Of a stretch of 64,000 nt of DNA, positions 8,468 through 23,017 are shown one piece after another. The notes under the pieces were generated by a model. That model was not told the origin of the DNA, made no database searches, and saw only the letters and a list, made by a program, of their open reading frames with translations. The translations under genes were made by a program, and so were the position numbers. This stretch comes from Chloroflexota bacterium. GTDB taxonomy: Bacteria; Chloroflexota; UBA11872; VXOZ01. How positions within the stretch are numbered: the first letter of the stretch is position 1; the number at the start of each line of letters is the position of its first letter. Location: NCBI GenBank assembly GCA_965216245.1, contig OZ244145.1, positions 1,804,097-1,868,096 on the forward strand, in the 5' to 3' direction.

Positions 8468-9769
8468 GTGCGGCCTCTCCTCGCGTCTCTCTTTCTGCTG
8501 CTCCTTGTTGCTTTCTCTGCCACATCGGTACACGCCACAGACTGTCAGTTCGTGCTCGGCTTCGAGACTCTGCGCGACCTGATCGGTCACGACGTAGTTG
8601 GCGAGTGCCTGGAGAACGAGCACTACGAAGCCAACGGTGATGGACTGCAACAGACCACGGGCGGCTTACTGGTATGGCGCAAAGCAGATAACTGGACCGC
8701 TTTCACCGACGGCTACCGCACGTGGATTAACGGTCCCAACGGTCTTGAACAGCGACTAAACACCGAACGGTTCGAGTGGGAGTATGACTACGCGCCGGGC
8801 GGCGGCATCGCCACGCCGACGCCTACTCCCATGGAACTCAATCCCGAGCACATCCTCGTTCCCGTGCTAGAAGTGATGCGATCGACGCCAAGTGGTGAAG
8901 AGGCCTACCAGAACTTACTCCGATTGGGCGTCGGCATAACCTTTGGCGGCAATCCGCCGTGGGGAAAGTACATATTTGATGTGCCAAGCAATCGCATAGT
9001 GCTTTTCGGAAACTATGTACACGAGGCACCGGACACAATTGCCCATCTCGTTGCTGAGGCGACTGAGCTCGCAAAGTGGTTCCATGTACACGGCGAGCCA
9101 ACGACTCCCGAGGAATGCATCGAACGTAAGTATTTAGTCTTGACGTCACGGGAAATATGGTTGACAGAGTTCAACGGTCACTCTCCAGTGTCAGATGTGG
9201 AGAGGCGTTTGCGAGCGCAAGAATATGTGCATCACCGAATCCACCGCGATTCGGAATTCTGCCCTGCCGTGCCAAGAGCGTCTGCGCGAGATGCGGATAT
9301 TGCGCGAGCGCTTGAGACCATGAGCCAGACGGCGACCGGTAGGCGCGTACATGATTGGTTCGTAGAATCCGGTGTGAGTGCGTACTTTGATCAGATAGAA
9401 TACCGTGGCGGTGTCTACTCTCCAAGGAATAACTACATTGCAATCCACGAAGCCCACCGCAATAGCCCGGTGAACGCCGCCGCCTGGTTCGTGCACGAGA
9501 CCATTCATGCGATGACACACGACGAACCAGAGTCTCAGGAAGAGTGCTATAGGCAAGAAGAGCGTGCGTTTAGCTGGCAAGCCCAATGGTGGATGGAGTA
9601 CTTTGGCAATGGCGGGAGCGGGTTGCAGGATGAAGACTCTAAGTCACAGGACTCAATCTTGAGGGACTACCTCGGTGGAACGCTTCTCAACGCTATTCGG
9701 GGAACACGGGCCTACCAGGACTATTGTGGCGCTTACCACGCTGGCGACATACCCTTGCAAATGCATTGA
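8468..9769 (+). CDS. secreted modular protein: signal peptide, conserved Cys-containing N-domain, Pro/Thr linker, HExxH (putative zinc-metallopeptidase-like) C-domain
   Basis: GTG start with GGAG RBS and hydrophobic signal peptide. The N-domain is ~70% identical to that of ORF 17253. TPTPTP linker. HETIH motif plus downstream conserved E in the C-domain, which is homologous to ORF 21535. Confidence 0.65.
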   Translation: MRPLLASLFLLLLVAFSATSVHATDCQFVLGFETLRDLIGHDVVGECLENEHYEANGDGLQQTTGGLLVWRKADNWTAFTDGYRTWINGPNGLEQRLNTERFEWEYDYAPGGGIATPTPTPMELNPEHILVPVLEVMRSTPSGEEAYQNLLRLGVGITFGGNPPWGKYIFDVPSNRIVLFGNYVHEAPDTIAHLVAEATELAKWFHVHGEPTTPEECIERKYLVLTSREIWLTEFNGHSPVSDVERRLRAQEYVHHRIHRDSEFCPAVPRASARDADIARALETMSQTATGRRVHDWFVESGVSAYFDQIEYRGGVYSPRNNYIAIHEAHRNSPVNAAAWFVHETIHAMTHDEPESQEECYRQEERAFSWQAQWWMEYFGNGGSGLQDEDSKSQDSILRDYLGGTLLNAIRGTRAYQDYCGAYHAGDIPLQMH

Positions 9770-9939
9770 CTGCAGCGAAAGACACATTCTTAGTGGCTGT
9801 ACTGGACACTATTTCGCTGCAAGCTAGTTGTTTCGTGTAGCTTCTTACGGCGCACTTTTCCTGGGAGGGGGCCGCGGGAAAAGATGGTTGTATGACCTTG
9901 CTTCCGAGGGGAATTATATACGAAAGTAAACAGGGCTGC

Positions 9940-11529
9940 CTATAATGACCATACCGTTTGCGGCAATCCAGGCTGTGTCATAGGCTTGCCAGTGAATGGG
10001 TCTAACATAGGTGGCACATGCGGCCTACGCCGGTCAAAATAGTCTTGAATCGACCATAGTCCAACACGTGGGTATCGTTCTGCTCCCACCACAACATTGC
10101 CCATCCTAGCAACGTCGCTTTGTGCGCTTGGAGTAGAAACAGATTCTAGCGTGATAAACAGGCCAAGCGCGGCATCTTCCATACCTACCACGCCTATGAA
10201 GTCGCGTAATTGCGAGAGTGAGAAGTGTCCGCTTTTGACTTGCGCCAGCACTAGCCTTGACTTCGTATTGTCCGGCTCTACAAGCATCATGCCACGCCCG
10301 TCTATCCCGCCATCTCCAGTCTTTTTCTTGTTCGGCACAAGTCCAGGGACTAGATAAATGGCCCACGATTCGAAGTCAAAGCGGTTGAGTTCTGCAAGCC
10401 GTCTAGCTGAGGCAAGGTCTGCCGGAATGCCCTCAATATGCGCCGTCACACCTAATGGCTTCAAGCGATATTCCTGCACTAAGTCAATGGCAAATGACGA
10501 AATGTCTATTCCGGCCCATCGCCTACCTAATCGCTGCGCCGCGTCAACGGTAGTACCGCAACCTGCAAAAGGGTCAAGGACAAGATCACCAGGATTGCTG
10601 GATGCTTCGATGATGCGCTCTAGTAAGGCGCGTGGCTTTTGTGTGGGATAGCCTAGGCGCTCTTTGGCTTGTGAGTTCACTGGTGGAATGTCAATCCATA
10701 CATCGGTGGTTGGTTTCCCAGGTGTGTCTTCAAGGTAACGCTTATATCTAGGCATGTTGGTTCTTGTGAAGACTATCCGACCTTTGGCCATGAGATCGTC
10801 AATTCTGTCTTGATCCCATGCCCAATGACGCCCAGAAGGGGGATCAAGTAGCCTATTGCCAAACCTTCGAGCTGGTCCTGACCCAGACCCATGTGCGGCG
10901 ACAAGCTGATAACGTCTTCCATCTTCATCTACGAGTCTGTAGTGACTCTCAATGTAGCTCAGATCATGCGGTTGGTATTGAGGATTCCACTGCACCTTTC
11001 CGGTCTTAGAATAGTAAAGGATCGTATCGTGAACCGAATTGTAGTTGCTAGCTCCTCCGTGAGAAAGTGATCGCTGCCAAATGACCTCACGACGAAAGTT
11101 CCCATTTCCAAACACCGAGTCCATAACCGCTTTGAGGTAGTGTGAAGCGTAAGGATCGCAATGAAGATAGATACTGCCAGTAGGTTTCAAGAGACGCTGC
11201 ATTTCTGCAAGCCGTTCAGCCATATAGGTGAGGTAGGCAAGCATCCCCGACTCGCCAAGCATGAAATGTAAGCCGTGAATGACTTGGTGCGCAGGATGCG
11301 CTATGGCATTCAGGATTGCTTCGGTGCGCTCGGCGGCTTTGTCGTCCCAATGCCACGTATCGGTGAACGCCCGCATTTGTGCAGGCACGTTGTTCTCGGT
11401 GCCAAAGAGGATATTGTAGTCGGTGTTGGAGTTGAACGGGGGATCGAGATATATGAGGTCTACGCACTCGCTCGGCCACTTGCGCATCCAGTCAAGGCAA
11501 TCACCATAATAAAGTGTTTGCGGTGTCAT
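9940..11529 (-). CDS. beta-class (PF01555-like) DNA methyltransferase fused to a C-terminal Mrr-like restriction-endonuclease domain
   Basis: DPPF motif IV near the N-terminus, DPFAGCGTT motif I later (beta order). C-terminal GDGGIDG...AQVKS matches the Mrr catalytic-domain signature. Confidence 0.8.
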   Translation of the reverse strand: MTPQTLYYGDCLDWMRKWPSECVDLIYLDPPFNSNTDYNILFGTENNVPAQMRAFTDTWHWDDKAAERTEAILNAIAHPAHQVIHGLHFMLGESGMLAYLTYMAERLAEMQRLLKPTGSIYLHCDPYASHYLKAVMDSVFGNGNFRREVIWQRSLSHGGASNYNSVHDTILYYSKTGKVQWNPQYQPHDLSYIESHYRLVDEDGRRYQLVAAHGSGSGPARRFGNRLLDPPSGRHWAWDQDRIDDLMAKGRIVFTRTNMPRYKRYLEDTPGKPTTDVWIDIPPVNSQAKERLGYPTQKPRALLERIIEASSNPGDLVLDPFAGCGTTVDAAQRLGRRWAGIDISSFAIDLVQEYRLKPLGVTAHIEGIPADLASARRLAELNRFDFESWAIYLVPGLVPNKKKTGDGGIDGRGMMLVEPDNTKSRLVLAQVKSGHFSLSQLRDFIGVVGMEDAALGLFITLESVSTPSAQSDVARMGNVVVGAERYPRVGLWSIQDYFDRRRPHVPPMLDPFTGKPMTQPGLPQTVWSL

Positions 11530-11541
11530 GACTGTTCCCGC

Positions 11542-11694
11542 CTACTTTTTCTTCTTCGGCGGCGGACTCTTTAGCACAGCGCGGGCCACGTCCTTGACCG
11601 GCGCATCAATGCGCGGTGGCATTGTCTTAGTGACAGGTCTCCCCACCTTGCCTTTGCCTAATGCTCTAGTCGCTTTGGGCTTGGGATTATCCAT
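11542..11694 (-). CDS. conserved 50-aa basic micro-ORF (KGKVGRPVTK AT-hook-like), first gene of the MTase operon
   Basis: Found by hand-translation; it is below the ORF-track size cutoff. It is 80% identical to the micro-ORF at 19608..19739 in the same position of copy 2. Stop lies 12 nt before the MTase ATG. Confidence 0.45.
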   Translation of the reverse strand: MDNPKPKATRALGKGKVGRPVTKTMPPRIDAPVKDVARAVLKSPPPKKKK

Positions 11695-11710
11695 AGTGGC
11701 GGCCTTTCGC

Positions 11711-11723
11711 GGGGGGGGGGGGG
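11711..11723. repeat. G13 homopolymer tract in the leader of the micro-ORF/MTase operon (C13 on the coding strand)
   Basis: Read directly from the sequence; the orthologous position in copy 2 is C5 (GGTAACCCCCGGCG). Confidence 0.9.
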
Positions 11724-11742
11724 TTACCTATTTACACTGTAA

Positions 11743-11754
11743 ACAGTATACTGT
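11743..11754. promoter_or_regulatory. perfect 12-bp palindrome ACAGTATACTGT in the divergent promoter region of the cargo module
   Basis: Seen in the sequence. In copy 2 (19547..19559) the corresponding dyad ACAGTATACTGTT has two mismatches at this position, but a near-identical shifted perfect 12-bp palindrome is present. Candidate operator. Confidence 0.4.
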
Positions 11755-11865
11755 ATTTGTAAGCGTTCTTTTGAAGAGTAACACGGGAATGAGAAACACA
11801 AAGGAGAAAGGCAATGCGAACCAAAGAGGAGACCTACCTGACAGCCATGGTAGGAGTGAGGGGGT

Positions 11866-12417
11866 ATGGCTGAATGGCTAGACGATGGACGCGTAATAGT
11901 TGGCCTATTTAGCGCCGGAGCGATACTGGTTGTCGCTCTCGTTGGCGGAGTTATCAAGCTTTGCCTTTGGATTGGCAGCACTGGCACCGATGTGAACAAT
12001 CTAGAAAAGTCCGCCGGAGAAGATCGGTCTACCTTCAAGGACATTGCAGGGGAGATCAAGAAGGATATAGATATAATTAGTGCAGATATCAAAGGCATCC
12101 TTGGCAGACTCTCGCCTTTAGACCCTCTTGTCCAAAAGGCCAGCCCGCTTCAATTGACTGAAACTGGCAAGAAAACCTCCCAGGCACTAAAGGCTAGAGA
12201 ATGGGCAGAAGAACTAGCACCCGGACTGCATGACCAACTGAAAGACAAAGAGGACTTCGAAGTCGATGCATTTTGCCAGAAGTACGTTCTCCGAAAACTG
12301 GCTCCGGCAACGGAAACACGTGTGTTGCGACGCGCCTACGAAACTGGCACTGAAGAGGCAGATATCAGAAAAGTGCTAGCAGTCGTCCTTAGAGACGAAT
12401 TGCTATCGTACCGTTAG
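11866..12417 (+). CDS. small membrane-anchored coiled-coil protein of the cargo module (unknown function)
   Basis: N-terminal TM helix followed by a coiled-coil region. The C-terminal 60 aa (EDFEVD.FCQ...RKVL.VVLRDELLSYR) are conserved with ORF 18911..19444. Confidence 0.6.
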   Translation: MAEWLDDGRVIVGLFSAGAILVVALVGGVIKLCLWIGSTGTDVNNLEKSAGEDRSTFKDIAGEIKKDIDIISADIKGILGRLSPLDPLVQKASPLQLTETGKKTSQALKAREWAEELAPGLHDQLKDKEDFEVDAFCQKYVLRKLAPATETRVLRRAYETGTEEADIRKVLAVVLRDELLSYR

Positions 12418-12428
12418 GCGGATGTGTG

Positions 12429-12470
12429 AAAGACAGAAGCCCCCGCGTCATTGCGGGGGCTTCTGTCTTT
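12429..12470. terminator. 18-bp-stem hairpin between the convergent small-protein gene and the transposase
   Basis: AAAGACAGAAGCCCCCGC-GTCATT-GCGGGGGCTTCTGTCTTT. The copy-2 equivalent has compensatory A/T changes that preserve the stem. Confidence 0.6.
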
Positions 12471-13409
12471 CTACGCAATCAAGTCTTGGTACCGCAGGCG
12501 CTTGCCCTGCATGTTCTGCACCATGTGGCGCATTTGGTCTATCGTGTTCGCGGGCCGGTCATTGTGCCGTCCGGAAAACTCACTCACGTAGCGGTCTAGG
12601 TGCTTCACGCTCATGTGGTGGTAGGTTCCCACGTAGCCGCGCTTCAAGAGAGACCAGAACGATTCGATGCCGTTGGTGTGAATTTGCTCACGTACGTACT
12701 CGCGGGCGGTGTGCCTGACTGTCTCATGCTCTACGTTGCCCAATCCCCGATATCCGCCATGATCGTCGGTAATGACTTTGGAGCCAGCTTTCACCTTATC
12801 GTTGACAAAGCCCTCTAGCGTCTCGCTGTCCGTGGCGGGGATGGAGATTGCAGACACTTTGTTGGACTCTCGCTCTTTGGCACCGATCACTGGTGTCTTG
12901 CCTACCGGCCCGCGCCCCGCGTTCAGCTTCTTGGATGCGTGTTTGTTGCGTTCCTTGCCGCCCATATACGTCTCATCAATCTCAGTGGTTCCAGCAAACG
13001 GCTCAATCTCATTGTCCCACGCCCTGCGGATTCTGTGAGCCATGTGCCAAGCGGTCTTTTGTGTCACATTGATATCGCGGTGCAATTTCATGCTGGAAGT
13101 ACCCTTGACGCCTGTAGTCATGAGATACATCGCCATCGCCCACTTGCGGTAGCCGATCTTGCTGGACTGCATCACCGTGCCGGTCTTGACCGAAAAGAAC
13201 TTGCGGCAATCGGAGCAATGGTATGGCATGGTAGGATGGTTGCCTTTGGCTCCCACGCGCTCGCCATTGCAGTATGCGCAGCGCAAACCGTCCGGCCAAC
13301 GTTCGCTAACAAACCACTGTTCGGCAGTTTCGTCATTCGGGAACATCTCGTGCAATTCGAGCAAGGATATACCCTTGCGGTAGTGCTTGCCAGGTGCTTT
13401 ATTCGCCAT
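12471..13409 (-). CDS. IS1595-family (ISXO2-like) transposase
   Basis: N-terminal zinc ribbon (C-x2-C...C-x2-C) and DDE domain layout typical of IS1595. 97% identical to ORF 17907..18857. Confidence 0.9.
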   Translation of the reverse strand: MANKAPGKHYRKGISLLELHEMFPNDETAEQWFVSERWPDGLRCAYCNGERVGAKGNHPTMPYHCSDCRKFFSVKTGTVMQSSKIGYRKWAMAMYLMTTGVKGTSSMKLHRDINVTQKTAWHMAHRIRRAWDNEIEPFAGTTEIDETYMGGKERNKHASKKLNAGRGPVGKTPVIGAKERESNKVSAISIPATDSETLEGFVNDKVKAGSKVITDDHGGYRGLGNVEHETVRHTAREYVREQIHTNGIESFWSLLKRGYVGTYHHMSVKHLDRYVSEFSGRHNDRPANTIDQMRHMVQNMQGKRLRYQDLIA

Positions 13410-13515
13410 CGTTACCCTCGTTTGCTGCTCAATTCCTACTCTCTAATTATAGCAGCAAAGTAAACATATGGCAAGGGATTTCAGGTACTTTCGTTTACTT
13501 ACGTATATAATTCCC

Positions 13516-13797
13516 CTTCCGAGGGAGCCAGTTGACACGTTCAACAAGCTTTGGGAGGATGAAGCAGAGGTAGTATTGTATGGATGGCCTATCGGACTGG
13601 GTTCAAGTGATTGTCGCTATCGTGGCGCTCTTGGGTCTACTTTGGCGATTGAAACCCGCATCTCAGGATTAGAATCACGCTTAGGTGAGCGCATTGCCCA
13701 TCTTGAAGCAAGTTCCGCTGGCTTGTCGAGTCGGCTTTCGCGGATTGAAAACGTGCTGGACCAGTTCTTGATGCGGACTGGCAGGGGGGAGCAATGA
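13516..13797 (+). pseudogene. 5'-clipped small coiled-coil protein gene; its original start and first 5 codons remain at 9892..9908 on the other side of transposon copy 1
   Basis: Joining 9892..9908 to 13524.. with one TSD copy removed gives a continuous ORF MTLLPREPVD... The ORF-track entry 13468..13797 is a fusion that starts inside the transposon IR. Confidence 0.5.
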
Positions 13798-14129
13798 AAG
13801 TACCCAGTGGGGATAGCATGCTGGAAGAGGTCACCGGAAATATCATAGAGCTTTGCCAGCATAATGATGTTCCTCATACAACTGGTATCATTCACAGCGA
13901 TGGCAAGAACATTGACTTCGAGATATATGGGGTGCCTGAGAATCCTAAGCACCAGAATGCTCGTGATGCATACGCTGCGAAGCGTGTCGTTACCTTAGTA
14001 GGTTTATTGCTGAGTTATTTGAAAGAGTATGAATCTGTGCGCACATACGTAACAGCCGGGAGAATCATGGCTGAATGTTCCGGAGAGCCGACGACTTACC
14101 TGGATGTCTCAGAAGTGCGTGTACTGTAG
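13794..14129 (+). CDS. hypothetical protein (111 aa)
   Basis: ATGA start/stop overlap with the upstream small gene suggests translational coupling. No recognisable domain. Confidence 0.45.
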   Translation: MKVPSGDSMLEEVTGNIIELCQHNDVPHTTGIIHSDGKNIDFEIYGVPENPKHQNARDAYAAKRVVTLVGLLLSYLKEYESVRTYVTAGRIMAECSGEPTTYLDVSEVRVL

Positions 14130-14658
14130 TCCCTGCACAGACTCGTAGTCTGGGGTAGCATAGTGGGCGCAGGAAATCTGGATTTGGTTGTCCTTGCGGC
14201 AAGGCCGTCTTGGTGGTCGACATTGGCCGAGTTGTTGCTAGGCCGGTAACATTGTGGATCTCTGGCAGGAACAGGTTGTTTCTGTCGCAAGTCTTTGCGG
14301 TGCCATATTCTCCCTTTCCCTCTCATATTCAGGCTGTCTTCTCTTGGCTACTCTTAGGCGCATTGTTCCGCAGATAAGCTAACCGCTTTATTTGGTGGCT
14401 TTAGCCAGACCTACTCAGTCTTGAACTACTGATTGCGCGGAAGTTCTACGAAACTATGTGCTCTTTGCAAGATATTGCGGACGCAGTGCGCCCCGCTAAG
14501 AAGAAGAACTTTGGATGGTTTTCCACCCTAGGCGCCAGGAAATGTGTCGAATTGCATCATATCTTCTGGGTCCTGAACGCGTATTAGCGGCTCGCCTAGG
14601 CGTAGAATGCTTGGGCGGGTGCTCTTGAGAGTGTGGGGGCAGTCCCAGGTAGAGTTGC

Positions 14659-15846
14659 TCATTGAGGGAGAGTCACCGTATCGTCCGCGACACGCAGGAT
14701 TTGTGCCGAATCCAGGACGTTCTGCGAGAATTGCCGGAGGTCGGAGGTGGTGGCGAACACTTGGACGTTGGGAGCAAGGGACGCGAGGACGTGTTGGCGG
14801 CGCTGGGCATCCAGTTCGGAGAGAAAATCATCCAGGAGAATGACCGGCCACTCGCCGGACTCCGCGTGGAGCAGGGAGACCTCAGTGAGCTTGAGGGTGA
14901 GGGCTGCCAGCCGTTGTTCGCCGCGCGAGCCGAAGGTAGCCAGAGGGTGGTCGCTGCGTAGGAAGGTAAGATCGTCACGATGCGGGCCCACGACCGTGAC
15001 CGCTTGAGCGCGCTCGCGGGGCGCCTGCTCCTCAAGGGCGGCTGAAAACGCTGACTGAATCTCTGCCAGCCAGGCTTGCGGTAAAGCGCTGCTGCGAAGC
15101 TCGGCGGGGAGGGGCGGAGTCGCTGGGAGCGGCACGGTCGATTCGTAGCGGAGGCGCAGGTCGGTAGCAGATCCTATGAGCGTGTCGTAGCGGGTGGAGA
15201 GTGGTTCCGCTACGTGTTCAACGAAGACCACGCGGAGGGCAGTAATCGATGCCCCCAAAGTCGTAAGCTCTCGGTTCCATGCTGCGAGCTGGCGCTGGTC
15301 GCGGGTCGATCCGTCGCGCAGGGCGCGCAACAGTGCGTTTCGCTCCGCCATCACGTGCTCGTAGCTTTGCAGCATGCGTAAGTAGCGCGAATCAATGCGG
15401 CTGAGCAGGTAGTCGAGATAGCGCCGCCGGCTACTGGGTGGACCGTCCACCAACGCAATATCATGGGGCGTAAACAGGACAACGTGCAGGTGTTGCAGGA
15501 GGCTCGAGGCGCGACGGGGCACGCCGCCTATGCGGATGCGCTTGCTAAACGCGGAGTCTTGTTGTTCGGCGGCCCAGATCACCTCTAGCGAGGTTTCATG
15601 ATCCCCGGCCCCTACTTCTCCGGCCACCCGTGTGTAGGGGCGCTCCGGATCGGGCGCGAAGCTGCGCATTTCCATATCGGAACGGGCCCGGAAGGAACGG
15701 CCTGTGGCTAGGCAGTGAATGGCTTCAAGGATATTCGATTTCCCAGCGCCGTTAGGGCCCGTGAAGATCGTCAACCCCTGCGCGAGCGAGAGCGTGGCGG
15801 AGCGATAGTTACGGAAGTTGGTGAGGGAAAGCGCGCTGAGATACAC
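14659..15846 (-). CDS. recF: DNA replication and repair protein RecF
   Basis: Walker A GPNGAGKSN near the N-terminus and SMC-like architecture; matches RecF length and motifs. Confidence 0.9.
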   Translation of the reverse strand: MYLSALSLTNFRNYRSATLSLAQGLTIFTGPNGAGKSNILEAIHCLATGRSFRARSDMEMRSFAPDPERPYTRVAGEVGAGDHETSLEVIWAAEQQDSAFSKRIRIGGVPRRASSLLQHLHVVLFTPHDIALVDGPPSSRRRYLDYLLSRIDSRYLRMLQSYEHVMAERNALLRALRDGSTRDQRQLAAWNRELTTLGASITALRVVFVEHVAEPLSTRYDTLIGSATDLRLRYESTVPLPATPPLPAELRSSALPQAWLAEIQSAFSAALEEQAPRERAQAVTVVGPHRDDLTFLRSDHPLATFGSRGEQRLAALTLKLTEVSLLHAESGEWPVILLDDFLSELDAQRRQHVLASLAPNVQVFATTSDLRQFSQNVLDSAQILRVADDTVTLPQ

Positions 15847-15938
15847 GGTGCGTCCTTCTGACTGCTGCAGGGTGAATTGGGCAATGTTTCACGTGAAACA
15901 TACCGGGTTGCCGGTGCGGCAAAGCCGGCGCAGACCGG

Positions 15939-16868
15939 CTAACCCTCGCGCCAGGGCGGCACGTCCCAGGTATTCACCCACTCCCATTCCCACTCAATGC
16001 GCTTCTCCGGTAACTTGAGCGCATATTCGATGCCGGCCGTAAAGGGGAGCACCTGGGTCTGCGGGCCGACTTTCTCGCGGTAATACTCAATGAACGCACC
16101 GACGTCACTTGCGTTTGGCGGCCAGTGCCCCTCCGGTACCGGGTCCGACTTTCGGTCGGTGCGGTAGTGCACGGGGATCAAGGCATACGGCCGTATGTAG
16201 TCCACGAAATCCTCGAGTTCGGTCGATTGGTGTTCCGCACTCGTCGGCGAGAGGCCGAGCTTCATGTGAATGGCAAAGTCCACCCGCCCGCGCAACGCCT
16301 GCATCGCCGGATAGGCAGCCCACGCGTCGCCAATGTGTAGAAAAGAGAGATTCAAGGCTTTGTGGGTAACCAGGAATCCTAGGTTTGGCAGATCAGGGCG
16401 CTGGTTCTCGCCGCTCTCGATGGTTTCCACGTGAAGCGCGCCAAGATCAACCTCGGTTGAGCCGGGAAACTCCCGCACGTGAACCGTGCCCGCCCACGGC
16501 CTGCCCCGCTGCATTTCGTTCTGATGCTTTGGATACATCACCTGTATCTTCTCCGCCGGCACGTGCTTCGTAATCGGCAAGTCGCGTGAAAACGCGGCGT
16601 CGCCATACTTCTCGTCAATCGGCTCGTCCGGCCACAAAGCGCCCGGCGGCACGAAGAGCGTCTTAAAACGCTCGCCCTGGCACAGCTTGCGGAGAGTCTT
16701 CGGATGGCAGTGGTCGAAGTGCTCGTGACTGATGAAGATGTAATCGTAGATGGGCTGCGCGTTGTCGAGGTTTTCGCCAAAGAGATACGGGTCGAAGGCG
16801 ATGTTCACATCGCCAAAGCGCACGTCAAATGCCCCACACCCCCACCACCGCAGCCAAATTCGTTCCAT
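15939..16868 (-). CDS. MBL-fold metallo-hydrolase
   Basis: HEHFDH (HxHxDH) motif. Confidence 0.75.
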   Translation of the reverse strand: MERIWLRWWGCGAFDVRFGDVNIAFDPYLFGENLDNAQPIYDYIFISHEHFDHCHPKTLRKLCQGERFKTLFVPPGALWPDEPIDEKYGDAAFSRDLPITKHVPAEKIQVMYPKHQNEMQRGRPWAGTVHVREFPGSTEVDLGALHVETIESGENQRPDLPNLGFLVTHKALNLSFLHIGDAWAAYPAMQALRGRVDFAIHMKLGLSPTSAEHQSTELEDFVDYIRPYALIPVHYRTDRKSDPVPEGHWPPNASDVGAFIEYYREKVGPQTQVLPFTAGIEYALKLPEKRIEWEWEWVNTWDVPPWREG

Positions 16869-16974
16869 GTGTTTTCCTCTGTCCCACTGTGCTCGCTGCT
16901 TTACGAACGGACTTAGTAGTTCTCGGCTTGACTAACTAAACGTAGTTTAGCCAATATGTTTAGGAGGTAAAGCC

Positions 16975-17145
16975 ATGAACGTACTAACCATAGCAGACCG
17001 TTTTCCAAATGGGCAATCCTGTGTCGAGATTCTTGAGCGGGTCAAGTGGCAGGGCGTGCCAAGGTGCCCATTCTGTGATAGCGAGGACGTAGAGCGCAAG
17101 CATGAAAACGAGATCGTCGGCCGGTGGAACCGCTGCAATCATTAA
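16975..17145 (+). pseudogene. remnant of an IS1595-family transposase N-terminal zinc-ribbon domain (56 codons)
   Basis: Hand-translated: MNVLTIADRFPNGQSCVEILERVKWQGVPRCPFCDSEDVERKHENEIVGRWNRCNH. It parallels the FPNDETAEQWF..WPDGLRCAYC N-terminus of the intact transposases, then terminates. Confidence 0.45.
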
Positions 17146-17252
17146 TCTCCCCATCCAGTCCAGGAAAATCGGAGGATTAATGGCTTAATTTTGGCCCTTC
17201 GGACTCTGCTAAACTAGGCCTTGTCACACCTCAACCAATATGTGGGTGCCTT

Positions 17253-17812
17253 ATGTACCGCATACCTGTACTTTTCTTGTTCCTGTTCATCGCATTGTTT
17301 CCCACCACCGCATCCGCCGCCGACTGCGAGTTCGTGCACGGCTTTGCGACCCTGCGCAATCTCATCGGTCACGAGATTGTGGGCGAATGCCTGGAGAACG
17401 AGCACTACAACGCCATCGGCGATAGCAACCAACAAACCACGGGCGGCCTACTGGCCTGGCGCAAGGTAGATAACTGGACTGCCTTCACTGACGGCTATCG
17501 CACCTGGATCAACGGGCCGAACGGGCTGGAACAACGCCTAAACACCGAACGCTTCGAGTGGGAGCAAGACCCGCCTGCGCCAGCTCCTGAGCCGACACCG
17601 GTTCCAACGCCGGCACCCGTAGCTGTCGAGTGCCCGGATGGGGACACCGTGCGGGGACTAGTGTCTGAGTCTCTGCAAATTAGCGGCATGCGCGGAGACC
17701 TTTTGAAGAAGTGGATGTACCAGCTAAGCGTGGGGATCGACAGCGTCGAATGGGCTTGTGCGTGGTTCTACTACTTGGGTTATGGGCCGGATAACAAGTG
17801 GGTCTTTGTAAA
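17253..17812 (+). pseudogene. 5' portion of a secreted modular HExxH-protein gene interrupted by transposon copy 2
   Basis: Signal peptide plus N-domain paralogous to 8468..9769. The reading frame continues exactly into 21520.. once copy 2 and one TSD are removed. Confidence 0.65.
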
Positions 17813-17906
17813 GGGAATTATATACGAAAGTAAACGAAACTGCCAAGAATCCCTTGACCGCTGTTTACTTTACTGCTATAATTAGAGAGTAGGAATTGAG
17901 CAGCAA

Positions 17907-18857
17907 ATGAGGGCAACGATGGCAAAGAAGGCACCTGGCAAGCACTACCGCAAGGGCATATCCCTGATTGAATTGTACGAGATGTTCCCGAACGACGAAA
18001 CTGCCGAACAGTGGTTCGTTAGTGAGCGCTGGCCCGATGGACTGCGCTGTGCCTACTGCAATGGTGAGCGCGTGGGAGCTAAGGGTAATCACCCGACAAT
18101 GCCCTACCACTGTGGCGATTGCCGCAAGTTTTTCTCGGTCAAGACCGGCACGGTGATGCAGTCCAGCAAGATCGGCTACCGCAAGTGGGCGATGGCGATG
18201 TATCTCATGACTACAGGCGTCAAGGGTACTTCCAGCATGAAGCTACACCGTGATATCAACGTGACGCAAAAGACCGCTTGGCACATGGCACACAGAATCC
18301 GTAGAGCGTGGGACAATGAGATTGAGCCGTTTGCTGGAACCACAGAGATTGACGAAACCTATATGGGCGGCAAGGAACGCAACAAGCACGCATCCAAGAA
18401 GCTGAACGCGGGGCGCGGGCCGGTAGGCAAGACACCAGTGATCGGTGCCAAAGAGCGAGAGTCCAACAAAGTGTCTGCAATCCCCATCCCCGCCACGGAC
18501 AGCGAGACGCTAGAGGGCTTTGTCAACGATAAGGTGAAAGCTGGCTCCAAAGTCATTACCGACGATCATGGCGGATATCGGGGCTTGGGCAACGTAGAGC
18601 ATGAGACAGTCAGGCACTCCGCCCGCGAGTACGTACGTGAGCAAATTCACACCAACGGGATAGAGTCGTTCTGGTCTCTCTTGAAGCGCGGCTACGTGGG
18701 AACGTACCATCACATGAGCGTAAAGCACTTAGACCGCTACGTTAGCGAGTTTGCAGGACGGCACAACGACCGACCGTCAAACACGATAGACCAAATGCGC
18801 CACATGGTGCAGAACATGCAGGGCAAGCGACTGCGCTACCAGGACTTGATTGCGTAG
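17907..18857 (+). CDS. IS1595-family (ISXO2-like) transposase
   Basis: 97% identical to ORF 12471..13409. Preceded by a 9-bp-stem inverted repeat (TTTGCTGCT..AGCAGCAAA) with a TATAAT in the loop. Confidence 0.9.
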   Translation: MRATMAKKAPGKHYRKGISLIELYEMFPNDETAEQWFVSERWPDGLRCAYCNGERVGAKGNHPTMPYHCGDCRKFFSVKTGTVMQSSKIGYRKWAMAMYLMTTGVKGTSSMKLHRDINVTQKTAWHMAHRIRRAWDNEIEPFAGTTEIDETYMGGKERNKHASKKLNAGRGPVGKTPVIGAKERESNKVSAIPIPATDSETLEGFVNDKVKAGSKVITDDHGGYRGLGNVEHETVRHSAREYVREQIHTNGIESFWSLLKRGYVGTYHHMSVKHLDRYVSEFAGRHNDRPSNTIDQMRHMVQNMQGKRLRYQDLIA

Positions 18858-18899
18858 AATGACAGAAGCCCCCGCGTCATTGCGGGGGCTTCTGTCATT
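18858..18899. terminator. 18-bp-stem hairpin between transposase and small membrane-protein gene (copy 2)
   Basis: AATGACAGAAGCCCCCGC-GTCATT-GCGGGGGCTTCTGTCATT. Confidence 0.6.
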
Positions 18900-18910
18900 C
18901 ACACATCCGC

Positions 18911-19444
18911 TTAACGGTACGATAGCAATTCGTCTCTAAGAACCACGCCGAGCACCTTTCTAGTGTCTGTGTGGTCGACACCAGTCTCGTAAGCGCGTCG
19001 GCGCACACGTGCTTCCATTTCCGGGGAGAGTTGATCGAGCACAAAGGTTTGGCAAAACATATCCACCTCAAAATCCTCTTTGCCCTCAAGTTCCCCGCGC
19101 AGTGTGGGGGCTATTTTCTTCGCCCAATCCCAAGCTCCCATCGCTTTTGCCGATTCTTCGCCGTGCTCCGTCAAGCTCAGTGGGCTTTCAACCTTGAACT
19201 GTGCAGGCGGCATCACTTTGAAGATGCCGAGAATGTGGTCTCTGATTTTCTCAATGGCTTTCTCAACTTTGTCCATACTGCCATCGAGTTTATCTATCCT
19301 ACTGTCAACAGCATCAAGTCTAGTATCAACCTTCCCTGTCCAGCGAGCAAAGCCAAAATGCCAAGCGGCAAGAGCTATGATTCCAACGGTGCCAGCACCA
19401 ATGACCGCAGCAATGATTGTGCCTAAATCCAACCATTCAGGCAT
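18911..19444 (-). CDS. small membrane-anchored coiled-coil protein, paralogue of 11866..12417
   Basis: Same architecture and conserved C-terminus. Confidence 0.6.
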   Translation of the reverse strand: MPEWLDLGTIIAAVIGAGTVGIIALAAWHFGFARWTGKVDTRLDAVDSRIDKLDGSMDKVEKAIEKIRDHILGIFKVMPPAQFKVESPLSLTEHGEESAKAMGAWDWAKKIAPTLRGELEGKEDFEVDMFCQTFVLDQLSPEMEARVRRRAYETGVDHTDTRKVLGVVLRDELLSYR

Positions 19445-19607
19445 ATCCCCTCGCTCCTACCCTGGCTGTCAGGTAGGTCTCCTCTTTGATTCGCATTGCC
19501 TTTCTCCTTTGTTTTTCTCATGCCCGTGTTCCTCCTCACAAAACGCCTACAAATACAGTATACTGTTTACGGTGTAAAGAGGTAACCCCCGGCGAAAGGC
19601 GCGAGCA

Positions 19608-19739
19608 ATGGACAAGCCAAAAGCGACTAGCAAAGGCAAGGTGGGGAGACCAGTCACCAAGACCATGCCGCCGCGCATAGATGCGCCGGTCAAAGACGTG
19701 GCCCGCGTTGTGCTCAAGGCTCCGCCGCCGAAGAAGTAG
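19608..19739 (+). CDS. conserved 43-aa basic micro-ORF upstream of the MTase (copy 2)
   Basis: Hand-translated: MDKPKATSKGKVGRPVTKTMPPRIDAPVKDVARVVLKAPPPKK. The stop lies 7 nt before the MTase ATG. Confidence 0.45.
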   Translation: MDKPKATSKGKVGRPVTKTMPPRIDAPVKDVARVVLKAPPPKK

Positions 19740-19746
19740 CCAAGAA

Positions 19747-20988
19747 ATGGCTACTTCAAATTGGGCAAACCGCTCCATCTTCACCGGTGACAATCTCGAT
19801 ATCATGCGCGGCATGAATGCGGAGACGGTTGACCTTATCTATCTTGATCCACCATTCAACTCTAACAAGAACTACTCCGCTCCAGTAGGTTCTAAAGCCG
19901 CAGGCGCAGCGTTCAAGGACACCTGGACGCTATCCGACTTAGATGTTGCCTGGATGGGTCTCATTGCCGACCAAGAACCTGCTATCTACAAGCTACTAGA
20001 GACCGCCCGACTGACACATGGCAAGGGAATGCAGTCCTACTTGTGCATGATGGCAGTGCGATTGCTGGAGATGCGTCGGTTGCTAAAAGAGACGGGGAGC
20101 ATATATCTGCATTGCGATCCGTATGCTAGTCACTACTTGAAGCTGCTAATGGACGCGGTATTTGGGAGAGCGAACTTTAGGAATGAAGTTCACTGGTATT
20201 ACTACAACAAGATGCATGACTATAGAAAGAAGCTGTTTGCTGCAGCAACAGATACTATTCTGGTTTACGTAAAGGATGTCAGCGCAGACTTCTTTTTTCA
20301 GCAGCAGACCGAACCCCGTGATAAGCCAATGCGTCAACTGAAAAGAAGAAAAGTCGAAGGTCGAATGGTCAACGCCAGAGATGCAGACGGAAACCTCATG
20401 TATCAGGTCAAGACAGAACGAACTGTTGATAATGTTTGGCGTATCCCTGCACTTCAGCCCGCATCCAAAGAGCGAACGGGGTTTCCCACGCAGAAGCCCC
20501 TGGCTCTTCTCAAACGCATCATTAGAGCTAGTTCTAGTCATGACGATGTCGTGCTAGACCCATTTGCCGGATGCGCAACCACTTTAATTGCTGCCCAAGC
20601 TGAAGGAAGGCAATGGGTGGGAATGGACCTATCACCAAAGGCGGTCGATCTAGTAAAGCAGCGCATTGATGCGCTGTCTGCTGTACCCATTACAATCGTT
20701 GCACGGACAGATATACCACAGCGCACAGACATTGATGCACCTATCCATTATCGGCAGAACAAGCACGTGTTATACGGTCAACAAGAGGGATTGTGTAACG
20801 GCTGTAAGATGGACTTCCCGTTCAAGATATTCGATGTAGACCACAGAACACCGAAATCTAGGGGCGGTACCGATCACCTGGATAACCTGCAATTGCTATG
20901 CTCTTCGTGCAATCGCATCAAGGGCGATAGACCCATGGAATATCTGATGGCGCAACTGTCGAATCAAGGCACGGCAAGCGTCTATTAG
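19747..20988 (+). CDS. beta-class DNA methyltransferase fused to a C-terminal HNH endonuclease domain
   Basis: DPPF then DPFAGCATT motifs. The MTase domain is ~60% identical to 9940..11529. C-terminal CNGC...DHRTPKSRGG...NLQLLCSSCN is a canonical HNH. The ORF track starts at 19681; ATG 19747 chosen by alignment with the paralogue. Confidence 0.8.
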   Translation: MATSNWANRSIFTGDNLDIMRGMNAETVDLIYLDPPFNSNKNYSAPVGSKAAGAAFKDTWTLSDLDVAWMGLIADQEPAIYKLLETARLTHGKGMQSYLCMMAVRLLEMRRLLKETGSIYLHCDPYASHYLKLLMDAVFGRANFRNEVHWYYYNKMHDYRKKLFAAATDTILVYVKDVSADFFFQQQTEPRDKPMRQLKRRKVEGRMVNARDADGNLMYQVKTERTVDNVWRIPALQPASKERTGFPTQKPLALLKRIIRASSSHDDVVLDPFAGCATTLIAAQAEGRQWVGMDLSPKAVDLVKQRIDALSAVPITIVARTDIPQRTDIDAPIHYRQNKHVLYGQQEGLCNGCKMDFPFKIFDVDHRTPKSRGGTDHLDNLQLLCSSCNRIKGDRPMEYLMAQLSNQGTASVY

Positions 20989-21006
20989 ACGGGGCACAGC
21001 GTATAG

Positions 21007-21276
21007 TTTAGGCTATGGGAGTTGGGTAGGGCCGAGGGATGTTAAAGAGTTAACATTAGTCCTACTGGACTAGCACTTGCTGGGTTTTGACCTCCTGTGT
21101 GGTTTCACGGGGACGGTTTTTGGACCTGGTTTGTTGCCCTGGCGTACTTGCCGGGGTTTTGTAATGCACTTAGAGGCGTTACTTCTAGAAGTGCTTCTGG
21201 AGGTACTTCTAGATTTGGAAGTAGCCATTCTACTGGCTCCTTTCCCCACAGCCCTACCCAACTCTGATAGCCTAAA
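21007..21276. mobile_element. 270-bp MITE-like element nested in the tail of copy 2, with 25-bp terminal inverted repeats
   Basis: TTTAGGCTATGGGAGTTGGGTAGGG at 21007 versus the reverse complement of 21252..21276 (23/25 match). Interior has palindromes ATGTTAA-N4-TTAACAT and CTTCTAGAAG. This segment is absent from copy 1. Confidence 0.4.
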
Positions 21277-21519
21277 CCTTGCAGTCAGTTTTGTGGTCGC
21301 TTACAATAGAGAAAGCGGTAGCCCGCTCACATGGCTGAGGTGTCCGGGAAAGACATGGCCTCAGCCATTGGCTTTTAAATGACTCTACCATAATGCGCTA
21401 CGGAATCCCATACCCAAACGCGGGATATAGTCATTCCGCTTTCCGCTACTACAAGATATAGGCCGCCTGGTCTCTATAGGCCAGTATAGCACGTCTGTTT
21501 ACTTAGGTATATAATTCCC

Positions 21520-22254
21520 TTTGTAAACTCGTATGTGACAGACCAGGCTTACCGGACAGATGTCTGGTGCACCATCTATCCGCACTTGAGCAATCTCAAT
21601 CGACAGGAATTACACTCTTTTCTCCAGTCCTTTCAGTTAGCCACTGCCGCATCCTTTTCTTTTGATAGATGCCAGGTGACAGCAAGCGTTCAGCCGACGC
21701 CACGACCGCAGCCCACACCAACTCCAACACCACGGCCCACGCCGGCACCTACGCAGTACATCGATCCCGCGTTGGCCGGAGTCATACGTGCACTGCAAAA
21801 CACCGAGTACGGCAAGGTACTGCACCAAGCGCTGCGTGAGAGCAACGTGGTCCACGTGGGCTATAAAGACCTCGCCTATCTTGGTTATTCTATCGCGTCC
21901 TTCAAACCCACTCTTGAAGGCGACCAGATCTTCTTAGGCGATTCCGTGCGCAACGAGAGCGTGGATGCCAAAGCAGCCATGCTCGCACATGAGATCTACC
22001 ACGCCTGGTTTTGGGCCACCGGCCGCCACGTGCGCTCAGTTGAGGGGTGCTACGAAGAAGAAATACAAGCAACCCGCGCACACGCCAAGTGGTGGTACGA
22101 GCGGTTTGGAGAGAGCGGTAAGCCCAGGCCGTCAGGAGAGGAGCGTAAGTTCAACGCGGCCGTGGCGCGGTGGCTGGAAGGGGAAATAGGAGACTGGATA
22201 CGTGCCGAGGAACTGTACCAGACACAGTGTTCGCATGAATACTATACGAATTGA
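21520..22254 (+). pseudogene. 3' portion of the interrupted secreted HExxH-protein gene (PT linker plus HEIYH domain)
   Basis: The ORF-track 21535..22254 frame continues from 17812 across the insertion. HEIYH...E aligns with HETIH of the 8468 protein. Confidence 0.6.
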
Positions 22255-22385
22255 CTCTATATGTGGTTTTTGCCCTAGACAGAGCACCCGCCCAAAGGGG
22301 TCGTGATGCCAAGGGAATAGACAGCGAAGTGACCAGCATGACCATTGGGAACACGAAGTAGACGTCTAGACCTAATTGCCTGGGA

Positions 22386-22793
22386 TTAGAACAATCCACT
22401 GAGCGCCTCCTGAGGAGCCACTGCACGAATTGGGGAACGTGCGTAGTCCCTGCCGTTCCTGGTGACAATGTGTCTAGCTCCGCAGGCACGGGCGGCAGCC
22501 ACCTGCATGGCGTCCTCGAAGTCAGCCATTGGTAGCTCGGCGGCATAGCGGATGCTTTCGGTGTCGGTCGTAGCTACCGCCACGAAGCGCGTAAGCTCGA
22601 CAATGAAGTCGCGCGCGCTCACGCCTCCAAGCGCTGGAGACACGATGTAATAGAAGTTGGATATGGAGTGCCACGCGATGAATGCCGCCTCTGCGCCCTG
22701 CTCAATCCGGTCCAGAAGTTCCGACGCTGGTGCGGAATGCGGATGCCTGTCGAGTGCGACGTCTATGAGTACGTCGGTGTCGAGAAGTATCAT
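22386..22793 (-). CDS. vapC: PIN-domain ribonuclease toxin VapC
   Basis: MILLDTDVLID... start with conserved acidic residues of PIN domains. 4-nt overlap with the upstream antitoxin gene. Confidence 0.75.
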   Translation of the reverse strand: MILLDTDVLIDVALDRHPHSAPASELLDRIEQGAEAAFIAWHSISNFYYIVSPALGGVSARDFIVELTRFVAVATTDTESIRYAAELPMADFEDAMQVAAARACGARHIVTRNGRDYARSPIRAVAPQEALSGLF

Positions 22794-23017
22794 CGGAGGT
22801 ACTTATCGGCCAGTGCATCATAACGCGGATCATCATCGCGCTCCGCCGCCTGAAACTTGCCTCGCCACCGCTCGGAAAAGGAGGGCTCGTATTCCCCCGC
22901 CATTTCCCTGAGAGACTGCTCAACCAGTGACGAAAGGGACACGCCGCGAGATCGGGCGTAGCGTTTTGCCACCGGCAATAGGTCTGCGTCCACTGTGACT
23001 GTGAGCTTCTGTTTCAT
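22790..23017 (-). CDS. vapB: VapB-type antitoxin (small DNA-binding protein)
   Basis: 75-aa ORF immediately upstream of, and overlapping, vapC. Confidence 0.5.
   Translation of the reverse strand: MKQKLTVTVDADLLPVAKRYARSRGVSLSSLVEQSLREMAGEYEPSFSERWRGKFQAAERDDDPRYDALADKYLR

Follow-up and report, generated by a model that had tools for sequence, protein, structure and literature searches.

Transporter insertion sequences (tIS) are insertion sequences (IS) that carry passenger genes unrelated to transposition inside their terminal repeats; they are said to occur only in the IS1595 and IS66 families, and the class goes back to the paper that described the IS1595 family (Siguier, Gagnevin and Chandler, 2009). 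A related kind of mobile unit was reported by Furuta, Abe and Kobayashi (2010; PMC2853133), in which restriction-modification (RM) genes are delimited by inverted repeats that are imperfect and by direct repeats of 8 bp, and related genomes have the empty sites; in Neisseria gonorrhoeae, one unit has a Type IIG gene together with a gene bearing a transposase motif (COG3677), and the same work cites solitary methyltransferase genes flanked by IS elements. The subject of the present analysis is a pair of elements, element 1 and element 2, in a stretch of 64,000 nt of contig OZ244145.1 of a Chloroflexota bacterium (GenBank assembly GCA_965216245.1); the whole stretch is called the window, all positions are window coordinates, and labels such as L001-L015 designate loci from related genomes. 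The two elements are very probably structurally intact members of a single Chloroflexota lineage of IS1595-family tIS, independently inserted on either side of recF.

Like the tIS of the IS1595 family, these elements have one DDE transposase with a predicted zinc ribbon, short terminal inverted repeats (TIRs), 8-bp target-site duplications (TSDs) and passenger genes inside, and unlike those already described they have a Chloroflexota host and recurrent accessory genes in their backbone, which encode a peptide with a GRP motif and a protein of 170-183 aa. With the RM units of Furuta et al. they have in common the inverted repeats, the 8-bp duplications and an empty site in a related genome; they differ from them, however, in that they have an intact transposase gene that belongs clearly to the IS1595 family, in that they carry a methyltransferase of the beta class with a nuclease at its C-terminus instead of a Type IIP pair or a Type IIG gene, and in that a series of sister elements shows exchange of the cargo. 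Thus, passenger-carrying IS1595 elements and transposon-like RM units with 8-bp duplications are already described, and what is new is the host phylum, the resolved sister series with its cargo exchange, the beta-class methyltransferase-nuclease fusions as cargo, and the two recurrent unannotated accessory genes.

The elements lie in opposite orientation, with an inverted match of 1326 nt at 88% identity, and their limits (Table 1) are those given in the preliminary description. The 23-mer GGGAATTATATACGAAAGTAAAC is found at four sites in the window with 0-2 mismatches, and at no site in shuffled sequence; relaxing the search to 5 mismatches adds no further site in the window. The terminal repeat is therefore of 23 bp, and not of 25 bp as had been proposed. 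The tips start GGGAATTAT, and a nine-base tract made only of A and T, AATTATATA, lies within the ends. The junctions of element 1 read cttg CTTCCGAG/GGGAATTATATACG ... CGTATATAATTCCC/CTTCCGAG ggagcc, and those of element 2 gggtc TTTGTAAA/GGGAATTATATACG ... GGTATATAATTCCC/TTTGTAAA ctcg, so that the 8-bp direct repeats claimed earlier for both elements are perfect on direct reading; a single match of 8/8 has a chance of about 1 in 65,000. The 23-bp sequence is absent from the viral contig collection.

Each insertion has its terminal repeats, a duplication of 8 bp and junctions that are precise; in the case of element 1 there is also an empty site, which the preliminary description had suggested looking for. 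This is found in L009, a contig of a related metagenome-assembled genome (ENA ERZ28763718, 2.18 Mb), where the 500 bp to the left of element 1 match positions 1029-1528 at 94.8% identity and the 500 bp to the right match positions 1521-2021 at 98.8%; the two matches overlap by exactly 8 bp, which are a single CTTCCGAG, and L009 therefore holds the true empty site of element 1. In the case of element 2, its removal together with one TTTGTAAA joins 17253..17812 to 21528..22254 in a continuous open reading frame (ORF) of 428 aa, which aligns with a paralogue at 8468..9769 across the junction without a break.

The arrangement of the pair invites another explanation, namely that the whole 11.6-kb region 9909..21519, recF included, is one composite transposon bounded by inverted copies of the element, as the outermost repeats (9909-9931 and 21497-21519) are mutually inverted and could in principle be used by the transposase. 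However, such a unit would be flanked by a single shared outer duplication, and the outer flanks are unlike (CTTCCGAG versus TTTGTAAA), each element having instead a matching TSD of its own; moreover, L009 has the recF region in the same orientation without element 1, and recF and its neighbours are syntenic housekeeping genes. As the origin of the present arrangement, the composite transposon is refuted, and its probability is next to nil. Because the outer flanks differ and the recF region of L009 is without element 1, the pair represents two separate insertions on either side of recF, and the intervening DNA has not been inverted by them.

The assignment to the IS1595 family, made in the preliminary description from the sequence, is borne out by the family models: both transposases match Pfam DDE_Tnp_IS1595 (132.4 and 135.2 bits, cut-off 27) and there is a match of 192.3 bits to NCBIfam transpos_IS1595 (cut-off 75). 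In the plasmid collection the closest transposase is less than 46% identical, and its annotation gives simply the IS1595 family. Among eight related transposases there is no variation in the acidic motifs IDETY, TDDH and HTNGIESFWSLLKR; IDETY144, TDDH214 and HTNGIESFWSLLKR244 (E249, K256) are kept in 8/8, and by analogy IDETY144, TDDH214 and E249 would form the catalytic triad, with K256 seven residues further on. The cysteines C44xxC and C65xxC are invariant in 8/8 related elements, and the match to Pfam Zn_ribbon_IS1595 is below its cut-off (19.4 versus 25.4 bits), this cysteine pattern and weak profile match being what points to a putative zinc ribbon at the N-terminus. As regards the start of the element 2 transposase, an alternative upstream ATG at 17907 would give 316 aa; the protein collection records the form of 312 aa. 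The short imperfect TIRs of the family are present, of 23 bp with 0-2 mismatches at all four ends in the window, its 8-bp TSD is perfect in seven independent insertions, one of them confirmed against the empty site, and the methyltransferase-nuclease, 177-183-aa and small-peptide genes all lie inside the terminal repeats. Judged by every family feature that could be tested, the elements are tIS of the IS1595 family; that they carry passengers and are not plain IS copies was correctly recognized before, and tIS is the name of that class. Within the family, the GGGAATTAT start of the tips agrees with GGnnatTAT, the end sequence of the ISNwi1 subgroup, which has passenger-carrying members and to which the elements may belong.

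The divergence between the two elements is uneven. Their transposase proteins share 304/312 residues (97.4%), in agreement with the value of about 97% given at first, and the genes are 92.5% identical in DNA, with dS = 0.39, dN = 0.012 and dN/dS = 0.03; the small peptides are 77% identical. The passengers, for which an identity of about 45-60% had been estimated, are more distant: 39% in the methyltransferase domain, the C-terminal nuclease domains being unrelated, and 42% between the 183- and 177-aa proteins. It might be supposed, as in the preliminary description, that the transposases were recently homogenized, that is, that the elements are recent copies of one transposon whose transposases have been kept alike by gene conversion as the cargo diverged or was replaced; the window transposases are in fact among the closest pairs in the data set, and a central block of 300 bp is 96-99% identical. 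Nevertheless, with a dS of 0.39 and a DNA identity of 92.5% the pair is far from being a recent copy, and falls in the same regime as between genomes, where dS ranges over 0.38-1.1 and dN/dS over 0.03-0.07. Element 2 is equally near to element 1 and to the L009 transposase (dS 0.375), which belongs to another genome; the untranslated ends and the cargo show differing relationships, and the purifying selection expressed by a dN/dS of 0.03 suffices for 97% protein identity. Gene conversion is consequently very improbable; the high protein identity is due to strong purifying selection on an old family, and on this divergence elements 1 and 2 are different members of one family that inserted independently, not recent copies. 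The word "copies" used for them at first is loose, as they are two different family members.

The wider family was approached through loci found via the transposase cluster and the cargo proteins, all of them from Chloroflexota where the assembly is named. The survey of relatives is small, the transposase query having given two loci in the genome scan and one in the metagenome scan; an exact-sequence look-up of the window transposase and of the 183-aa protein found no contig on record, and the contexts were taken from cluster relatives. Five further independent insertions have the same 23-bp ends and perfect 8-bp TSDs (Table 1), which makes seven with elements 1 and 2. In pairwise comparison of the elements, the transposase module is 85-91% identical in all pairs, and the other modules have different nearest relatives: the cargo of element 1 is nearest to L003 (87% over 2 kb), the part of element 2 from the transposase to the control region, with the 177-aa gene, is nearest to L008 (84% over 1.9 kb), and the element 2 methyltransferase is nearest to L009 (75-83%) and L004. 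These differing nearest relatives, together with the differing cargo, make module exchange real, and in this respect the module shuffling suspected in the preliminary description has held. The common order points to a slot for the cargo, situated between the repeat and the gene for the small peptide.

Decayed copies are found beside parB in L002, L004 and L005 (10001-13351, 8790-12021 and 5240-8471, respectively), where the transposase gene is truncated, one repeat is lost and the methyltransferase-HNH gene is intact, which suggests that the cargo was retained after the element was immobilized. The methyltransferase-HNH protein of L004 is 95% identical to that of element 2, and the small-peptide frame survives in divergent form in L004 and L005, with no ATG seen in L004. 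In L009 (5506-7929) and L008 (5756-7915), the elements are inserted in the 3′ ends of defence-type genes, one MmeI-like of 807 aa and one Mrr_cat-nSTAND1 of 719 aa, and the gene calls extend 20-35 bp inside the terminal repeat.

Table 1. Features of the two elements and of the interrupted gene and recF (window coordinates), followed by the sister insertions in related genomes.
Feature	Position	Strand	Length	Remarks
Element 1	9909..13515		3607 bp	
Element 1 TSD	left 9901-9908, right 13516-13523		8 bp	CTTCCGAG; read directly from sequence
Element 1 TIR, cargo end	9909-9931	+	23 bp	0 mismatches to GGGAATTATATACGAAAGTAAAC
Element 1 TIR, transposase end	13493-13515	-	23 bp	1 mismatch to GGGAATTATATACGAAAGTAAAC
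Element 1 cargo	9940..11529	-	529 aa	Beta-class DNA methyltransferase with C-terminal Mrr-type nuclease domain
Element 1 small gene	11542..11694	-	50 aa	Basic peptide, GRP (AT-hook-like) motif; just upstream of methyltransferase gene
Element 1 divergent control region	11695..11865			From small gene to 183-aa gene; palindromes ACAGTATACTGT (11743-11754) and TTTACAGTGTAAA
Element 1 183-aa protein gene	11866..12417	+	183 aa	Hydrophobic predicted-helical N-terminus, C-terminal helical domain
Element 1 hairpin	12428..12471		19 bp	Perfect; between convergent 183-aa and transposase genes
Element 1 transposase	12471..13409	-	312 aa	IS1595 family, by family models and motifs
Element 1 promoter-like site	13446..13474	-		5′ of transposase gene; TTGCCA-17-TATAAT with TG; 11/12 consensus matches only
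recF	14659..15846	-		NCBIfam TIGR00611, 299.8 bits (cut-off 172)
5′ part of 428-aa gene split by element 2	17253..17812	+		Includes left TTTGTAAA
Element 2	17813..21519		3707 bp	
Element 2 TSD	left 17805-17812, right 21520-21527		8 bp	TTTGTAAA; read directly from sequence
Element 2 TIR, transposase end	17813-17835	+	23 bp	0 mismatches to GGGAATTATATACGAAAGTAAAC
Element 2 promoter-like site	17854..17882	+		5′ of transposase gene; TTGACC-17-TATAAT with TG; 11/12 consensus matches only
Element 2 transposase	17919..18857	+	312 aa	From MAKKAPG; by family models and motifs
Element 2 hairpin	18857-18900			Same hairpin as in element 1
Element 2 177-aa protein gene	18911..19444	-	177 aa	Homologue of 183-aa protein, 42% identity
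Element 2 control region	19445..19607			Palindrome ACAGTATACTGT at 19555-19566
Element 2 small gene	19608..19739	+	43 aa	GRP motif
Element 2 cargo	19747..20988	+	413 aa	Beta-class DNA methyltransferase with C-terminal HNH nuclease; start MATSNW
Segment with inverted repeats	21006..21277		272 bp	In 3′ non-coding tail of element 2; bounded by inverted repeats of 33 nt, 88% complementary
Element 2 TIR, cargo end	21497-21519	-	23 bp	2 mismatches to GGGAATTATATACGAAAGTAAAC
3′ part of 428-aa gene	21520..22254	+		Range includes right TTTGTAAA at 21520-21527
Sister L003 (= L006, same insertion)			4386 bp	TSD CTTAGATT; extra HARE-HTH gene; 171-aa gene; small peptide; methyltransferase-Mrr
Sister L007			4578 bp	TSD CTTAAGAG; SocA_Panacea gene; small peptide; methyltransferase-HNH, 488 aa
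Sister L008			3008 bp	TSD CAAAGTTA; 170-aa gene; small peptide; Bro-N protein; without methyltransferase
Sister L009			3168 bp	TSD TTGCGATG; two small genes; small peptide; methyltransferase-HNH, 404 aa
Sister L015			3201 bp	TSD TTTGCATA; transposase with 71% identity; no gene after small peptide, which ends 45 bp from repeat

As to how the elements move, the DDE transposase with its N-terminal zinc ribbon would bind the 23-bp GGGAATTATATAC... ends and would insert the entire unit of 3.6-3.7 kb by means of a cut with an 8-bp stagger. The single copy of each element within the 64-kb window, the decayed copies at conserved sites elsewhere (L002, L004 and L005 beside parB, and L001) and the location of all close relatives near recF would agree with the elements being fixed, immobile relics whose intact frames reflect host selection for the cargo. 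However, relics would hardly be found at seven different insertion sites with perfect 8-bp TSDs, with transposase genes under strong purifying selection and repeats with at most 2 mismatches; and since element 1 is missing from a genome whose flanks are 95-99% identical, its insertion must be recent. Immobility is for these reasons unlikely, and the reading as an intact tIS lineage is to be preferred.

With respect to the cargo, the element 1 protein matches Pfam N6_N4_Mtase (164.7 bits, residues 23-352) and Mrr_cat (26.5 bits, cut-off 21, residues 399-479), with the motifs DPPF29, DPFAGCGT319, DGGIDG406 and QVK430, and the element 2 protein, recorded in the protein collection in its form of 413 aa, matches N6_N4_Mtase (160.8 bits) and HNH (46.7 bits), with DPPF34, DPFAGCAT271, CNGC350, DVDH363, N and CSSC385. 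The order of motifs, with DPPF at the N-terminal side and DPFAGCxT at the C-terminal side, is that of a beta-class amino-methyltransferase, and the closest solved structures are the N6-adenine enzymes CcrM, M.RsrI and M.MboIIA; N6-adenine is probably the base modified. In beta-class methyltransferases the target-recognition domain lies in the middle segment, and in an alignment of seven fused proteins this segment is unalignable even among those of element 2, L002 and L009, otherwise about 90% identical, while the N-terminal part around DPPF and the C-terminal part with PTQKP, DPFAGC and the nuclease are near-identical. The catalytic motifs of both domains are intact, and are kept in homologues down to 55% overall identity; two unrelated nuclease folds, Mrr-type and HNH, occupy the same C-terminal position.

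Combined enzymes of Type IIC/IIG, such as MmeI, mostly have an N-terminal PD-(D/E)XK domain, then a methyltransferase of the gamma class (NPPY) and a single exchangeable recognition module, and BtgZI has an N-terminal alpha-class methyltransferase with a C-terminal PD...QxK nuclease. Both cargo proteins resemble Type IIC/IIG enzymes in uniting methyltransferase and nuclease domains in a single chain, and the element 1 protein has the same domain order as BtgZI and the same Q-for-E variant (QVK430); they differ from Type IIC/IIG enzymes in being of the beta class (DPPF first, FxGxG last) with the nuclease at the C-terminus, in one case HNH. In the reviews there is no example of a beta-class methyltransferase-HNH restriction enzyme.

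It may be, then, that the fused protein is a single-chain RM enzyme, in which the hypervariable middle would be one recognition domain directing both methylation and cutting, and the element would carry a portable defence or addiction module whose specificity is changed by swapping the middle segment. We favor this tentatively, as a possibility that comes close to even without reaching it, because the recognition segments are exchanged, the nuclease residues are conserved and two nuclease folds stand in the same position; the methyltransferase-HNH gene that is intact in a decayed copy lacking most of the transposase gene is further support, as is the existence of BtgZI, a combined enzyme with a comparable domain order. 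Several points weigh against it: the architecture is atypical, known combined RM enzymes being nearly all of the gamma class with an N-terminal nuclease, the top PADLOC matches cover only the methyltransferase part, and in L001 it is the methyltransferase gene that has decayed, with the transposase gene intact, so that the cargo is dispensable. The protein could alternatively be a solitary methyltransferase serving protection, epigenetic marks or regulation of the element, with the nuclease used otherwise, for instance in nicking during spread or against modified DNA. IS-associated solitary methyltransferase genes have been reported, Mrr-type domains are typical of modification-dependent enzymes, a separate restriction gene is absent, and the architecture is unlike that of most combined enzymes. 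Yet a swappable recognition segment between conserved catalytic ends is the pattern of specificity in an arms race, the catalytic residues of the nuclease are kept in all homologues, and the recurrence of two nuclease folds in one position would mean that DNA cutting itself has been selected; a solitary methyltransferase is on these grounds rather unlikely, though to be reckoned with. If the single-chain RM enzyme proves true and self-contained, it would be a new architecture among combined enzymes, and would show a minimal transposon spreading and diversifying defence or addiction functions.

The backbone that surrounds the cargo follows a constant order, which is repeat, promoter, transposase, hairpin, an optional opposite-strand gene of 177-183 aa, palindromic control region, gene for a GRP peptide of 43-54 aa, variable cargo slot, and repeat. 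The preliminary description spoke of a three-gene passenger module, and the number stands; the third gene, however, is the small ORF of 43-50 aa and not the opposite-strand ORFs of 117/92 aa. The peptide, ...KGKVGRPVTKTMPPRIDAPVKDVARAVLKxPPPKKK, occurs in every related element and has 81 unnamed homologues of 43-83 aa. Across seven elements the variable columns of its gene number 9, 9 and 23 at codon positions 1, 2 and 3, with CGT/AGA arginine codons among them, and it is this concentration of variation at third positions that identifies it as a real coding gene. The GRP core lies in a lysine-rich context, and the peptide may bind AT-rich DNA, either the AATTATATA tract of the ends or the palindromic control region, and in this way would regulate transposition or cargo expression; on the other hand, the canonical RGRP is found only in the L015 relative, and a GRP motif is all that points to the proposed role. 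A fusion of the small peptide with the methyltransferase by read-through or frameshift was considered and rejected, as the ORFs are in frame in element 1 and 7 nt out of register in element 2.

The 183- and 177-aa proteins both carry the C-terminal motif RKVLxVVLRDELLSYR, and for the former there is no match in Pfam, NCBIfam or PADLOC. Word-indexed searches with it found almost no relatives, and an exhaustive profile HMM search gave 1240 cluster representatives, 708 of them at E <= 1e-10, mostly of 160-230 aa. The family shares a hydrophobic N-terminal segment, a variable segment for which the model gives a long helix of low confidence, and a C-terminal domain that is conserved (SPL.LT..G...WA...AP...FE..EFC..Y...AYE.G...VL.VVLRDELL), which is modelled as five helices with a pLDDT of about 90, the N-terminal half being of low confidence; a fold search of this domain against the PDB was without a match (best E = 1.4). 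Five contexts of distant accessory genes were examined. Distant homologues of the 183-aa protein adjoin IS1595-type transposase genes in L010 (4243-6510) and in L012 (5174-6525) / L013, another in L014 stands alone, and a homologue of the small peptide lies beside an IS1595-type transposase gene in L015 (2032-5232); a search around the IS1595-type transposase genes that adjoin the 170-aa homologues of L010 and L012 gave no clear repeats. Both families may be general accessory genes of part of the IS1595 family rather than cargo. To our knowledge, neither the GRP-motif peptide nor the 170-183-aa protein has been described for the IS1595 family.

Several candidate control sequences accompany this backbone (Table 1). 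In both elements a promoter-like site with an extended -10 sits between the repeat and the transposase start, and the 19-bp hairpin between the convergent genes is likely a two-way terminator. Beyond the 183/177-aa gene there is a stretch of about 300 bp, in which the small gene of the cargo strand also lies; here the two elements are 84-91% identical, against only about 40% for the genes that flank it. The palindrome ACAGTATACTGT is exact in both window elements, and a second one (11755-11770; 19567-19582) is TTTACAGTGTAAA in the window elements and TTGACAGTGTCAA or TTGACCGTGTCAA in the sister elements L003 and L008, that is, TTGAC(A/C)GTGTCAA, with L002 intermediate; the symmetry is preserved by the paired T/G and A/C changes, which is what an operator bound by a dimeric protein would be expected to show.

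In addition, a leader of about 75 nt lies 5′ of the 183/177-aa gene (11790-11865; 19445-19520) and is about 90% conserved in elements 1 and 2, L002, L003 and L008, more than the surrounding coding sequences; it has a CCTACC...GGTAGG hairpin right before the ribosome-binding site, and may be a regulatory RNA structure or a protein-binding site. A known RNA or a tRNA as target was ruled out: in 9000-23000, Rfam at a permissive threshold yielded a Leu_leader match of chance level and no other, and over the whole window there was nothing at the gathering threshold and no tRNA genes. An outward-facing TATAAT lies inside the terminal repeat, 5 bases from the tip, with a -35-like hexamer 18 nt further in (9913-9942(-), 17817-17846(-)), and by these consensus matches only, the element ends could drive transcription of neighbouring genes. 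The 272-bp segment in the tail of element 2, which neither element 1 nor any of the 17 fetched loci contains and which shows no obvious TSD, could represent either a structured region or a small mobile element nested in the larger one.

Taken to its full extent, the lineage would be a purpose-built cargo vehicle, in which a conserved backbone expresses whatever the slot contains, the usual load being an uncharacterized class of single-chain RM enzymes (beta-class with HNH or Mrr) that would change specificity by swapping the middle segment and cutting chemistry by swapping the nuclease, and in which the accessory proteins would be new regulators of transposition or cargo, shared by many IS1595-family elements; this is a speculative picture, and unlikely to hold in every part. 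Independently of it, the locus provides a reference example of an IS1595-family tIS in an under-studied phylum, with an empty site, seven insertions and module exchange. The GRP-motif peptide (81 homologues) and the 170-183-aa protein (1240 representatives) gain a context through their repeated linkage to IS1595 transposases, and the interest would rise if they prove to be general regulators of the family. For annotation, the elements account for a disrupted gene and for the variable region beside recF.

The ATPase between the elements was considered as a defence gene on account of a PADLOC "mad3" match, which was dropped as NCBIfam shows RecF, and the idea of a defence gene pair was abandoned. 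In six related Chloroflexota genomes, elements of the family with differing TSDs and cargo all lie 0.4-4 kb from recF and the adjacent MBL-fold hydrolase gene (window 13524-17804; L001 6110-8243; L003 3238-8381; L007 5209-6885; L008 3019-7895; L009 2664-7895), and the region looks like an insertion hotspot or a variable region; the decayed copies of L002, L004 and L005 adjoin parAB.

The paralogous proteins of about 430 aa (8468-9769; 17253-17812 plus 21528-22254), the first of them intact just upstream of element 1 and the second split by element 2, are highly similar in their N-terminal 100 aa (300 nt at 78% DNA identity), have an HExxH motif near the C-terminus (HETIH, HEIYH) and a hydrophobic N-terminal stretch that resembles a putative signal peptide; Pfam and NCBIfam give no match for them. 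Just downstream of the interrupted 428-aa gene lie a gene with a PIN domain (PIN_3, 63.5 bits) and, after it, one of 75 aa (22386-23017(-)), likely a toxin-antitoxin pair, and the partner of the PIN gene is called DUF6364 in the syntenic L003, L007 and L009.

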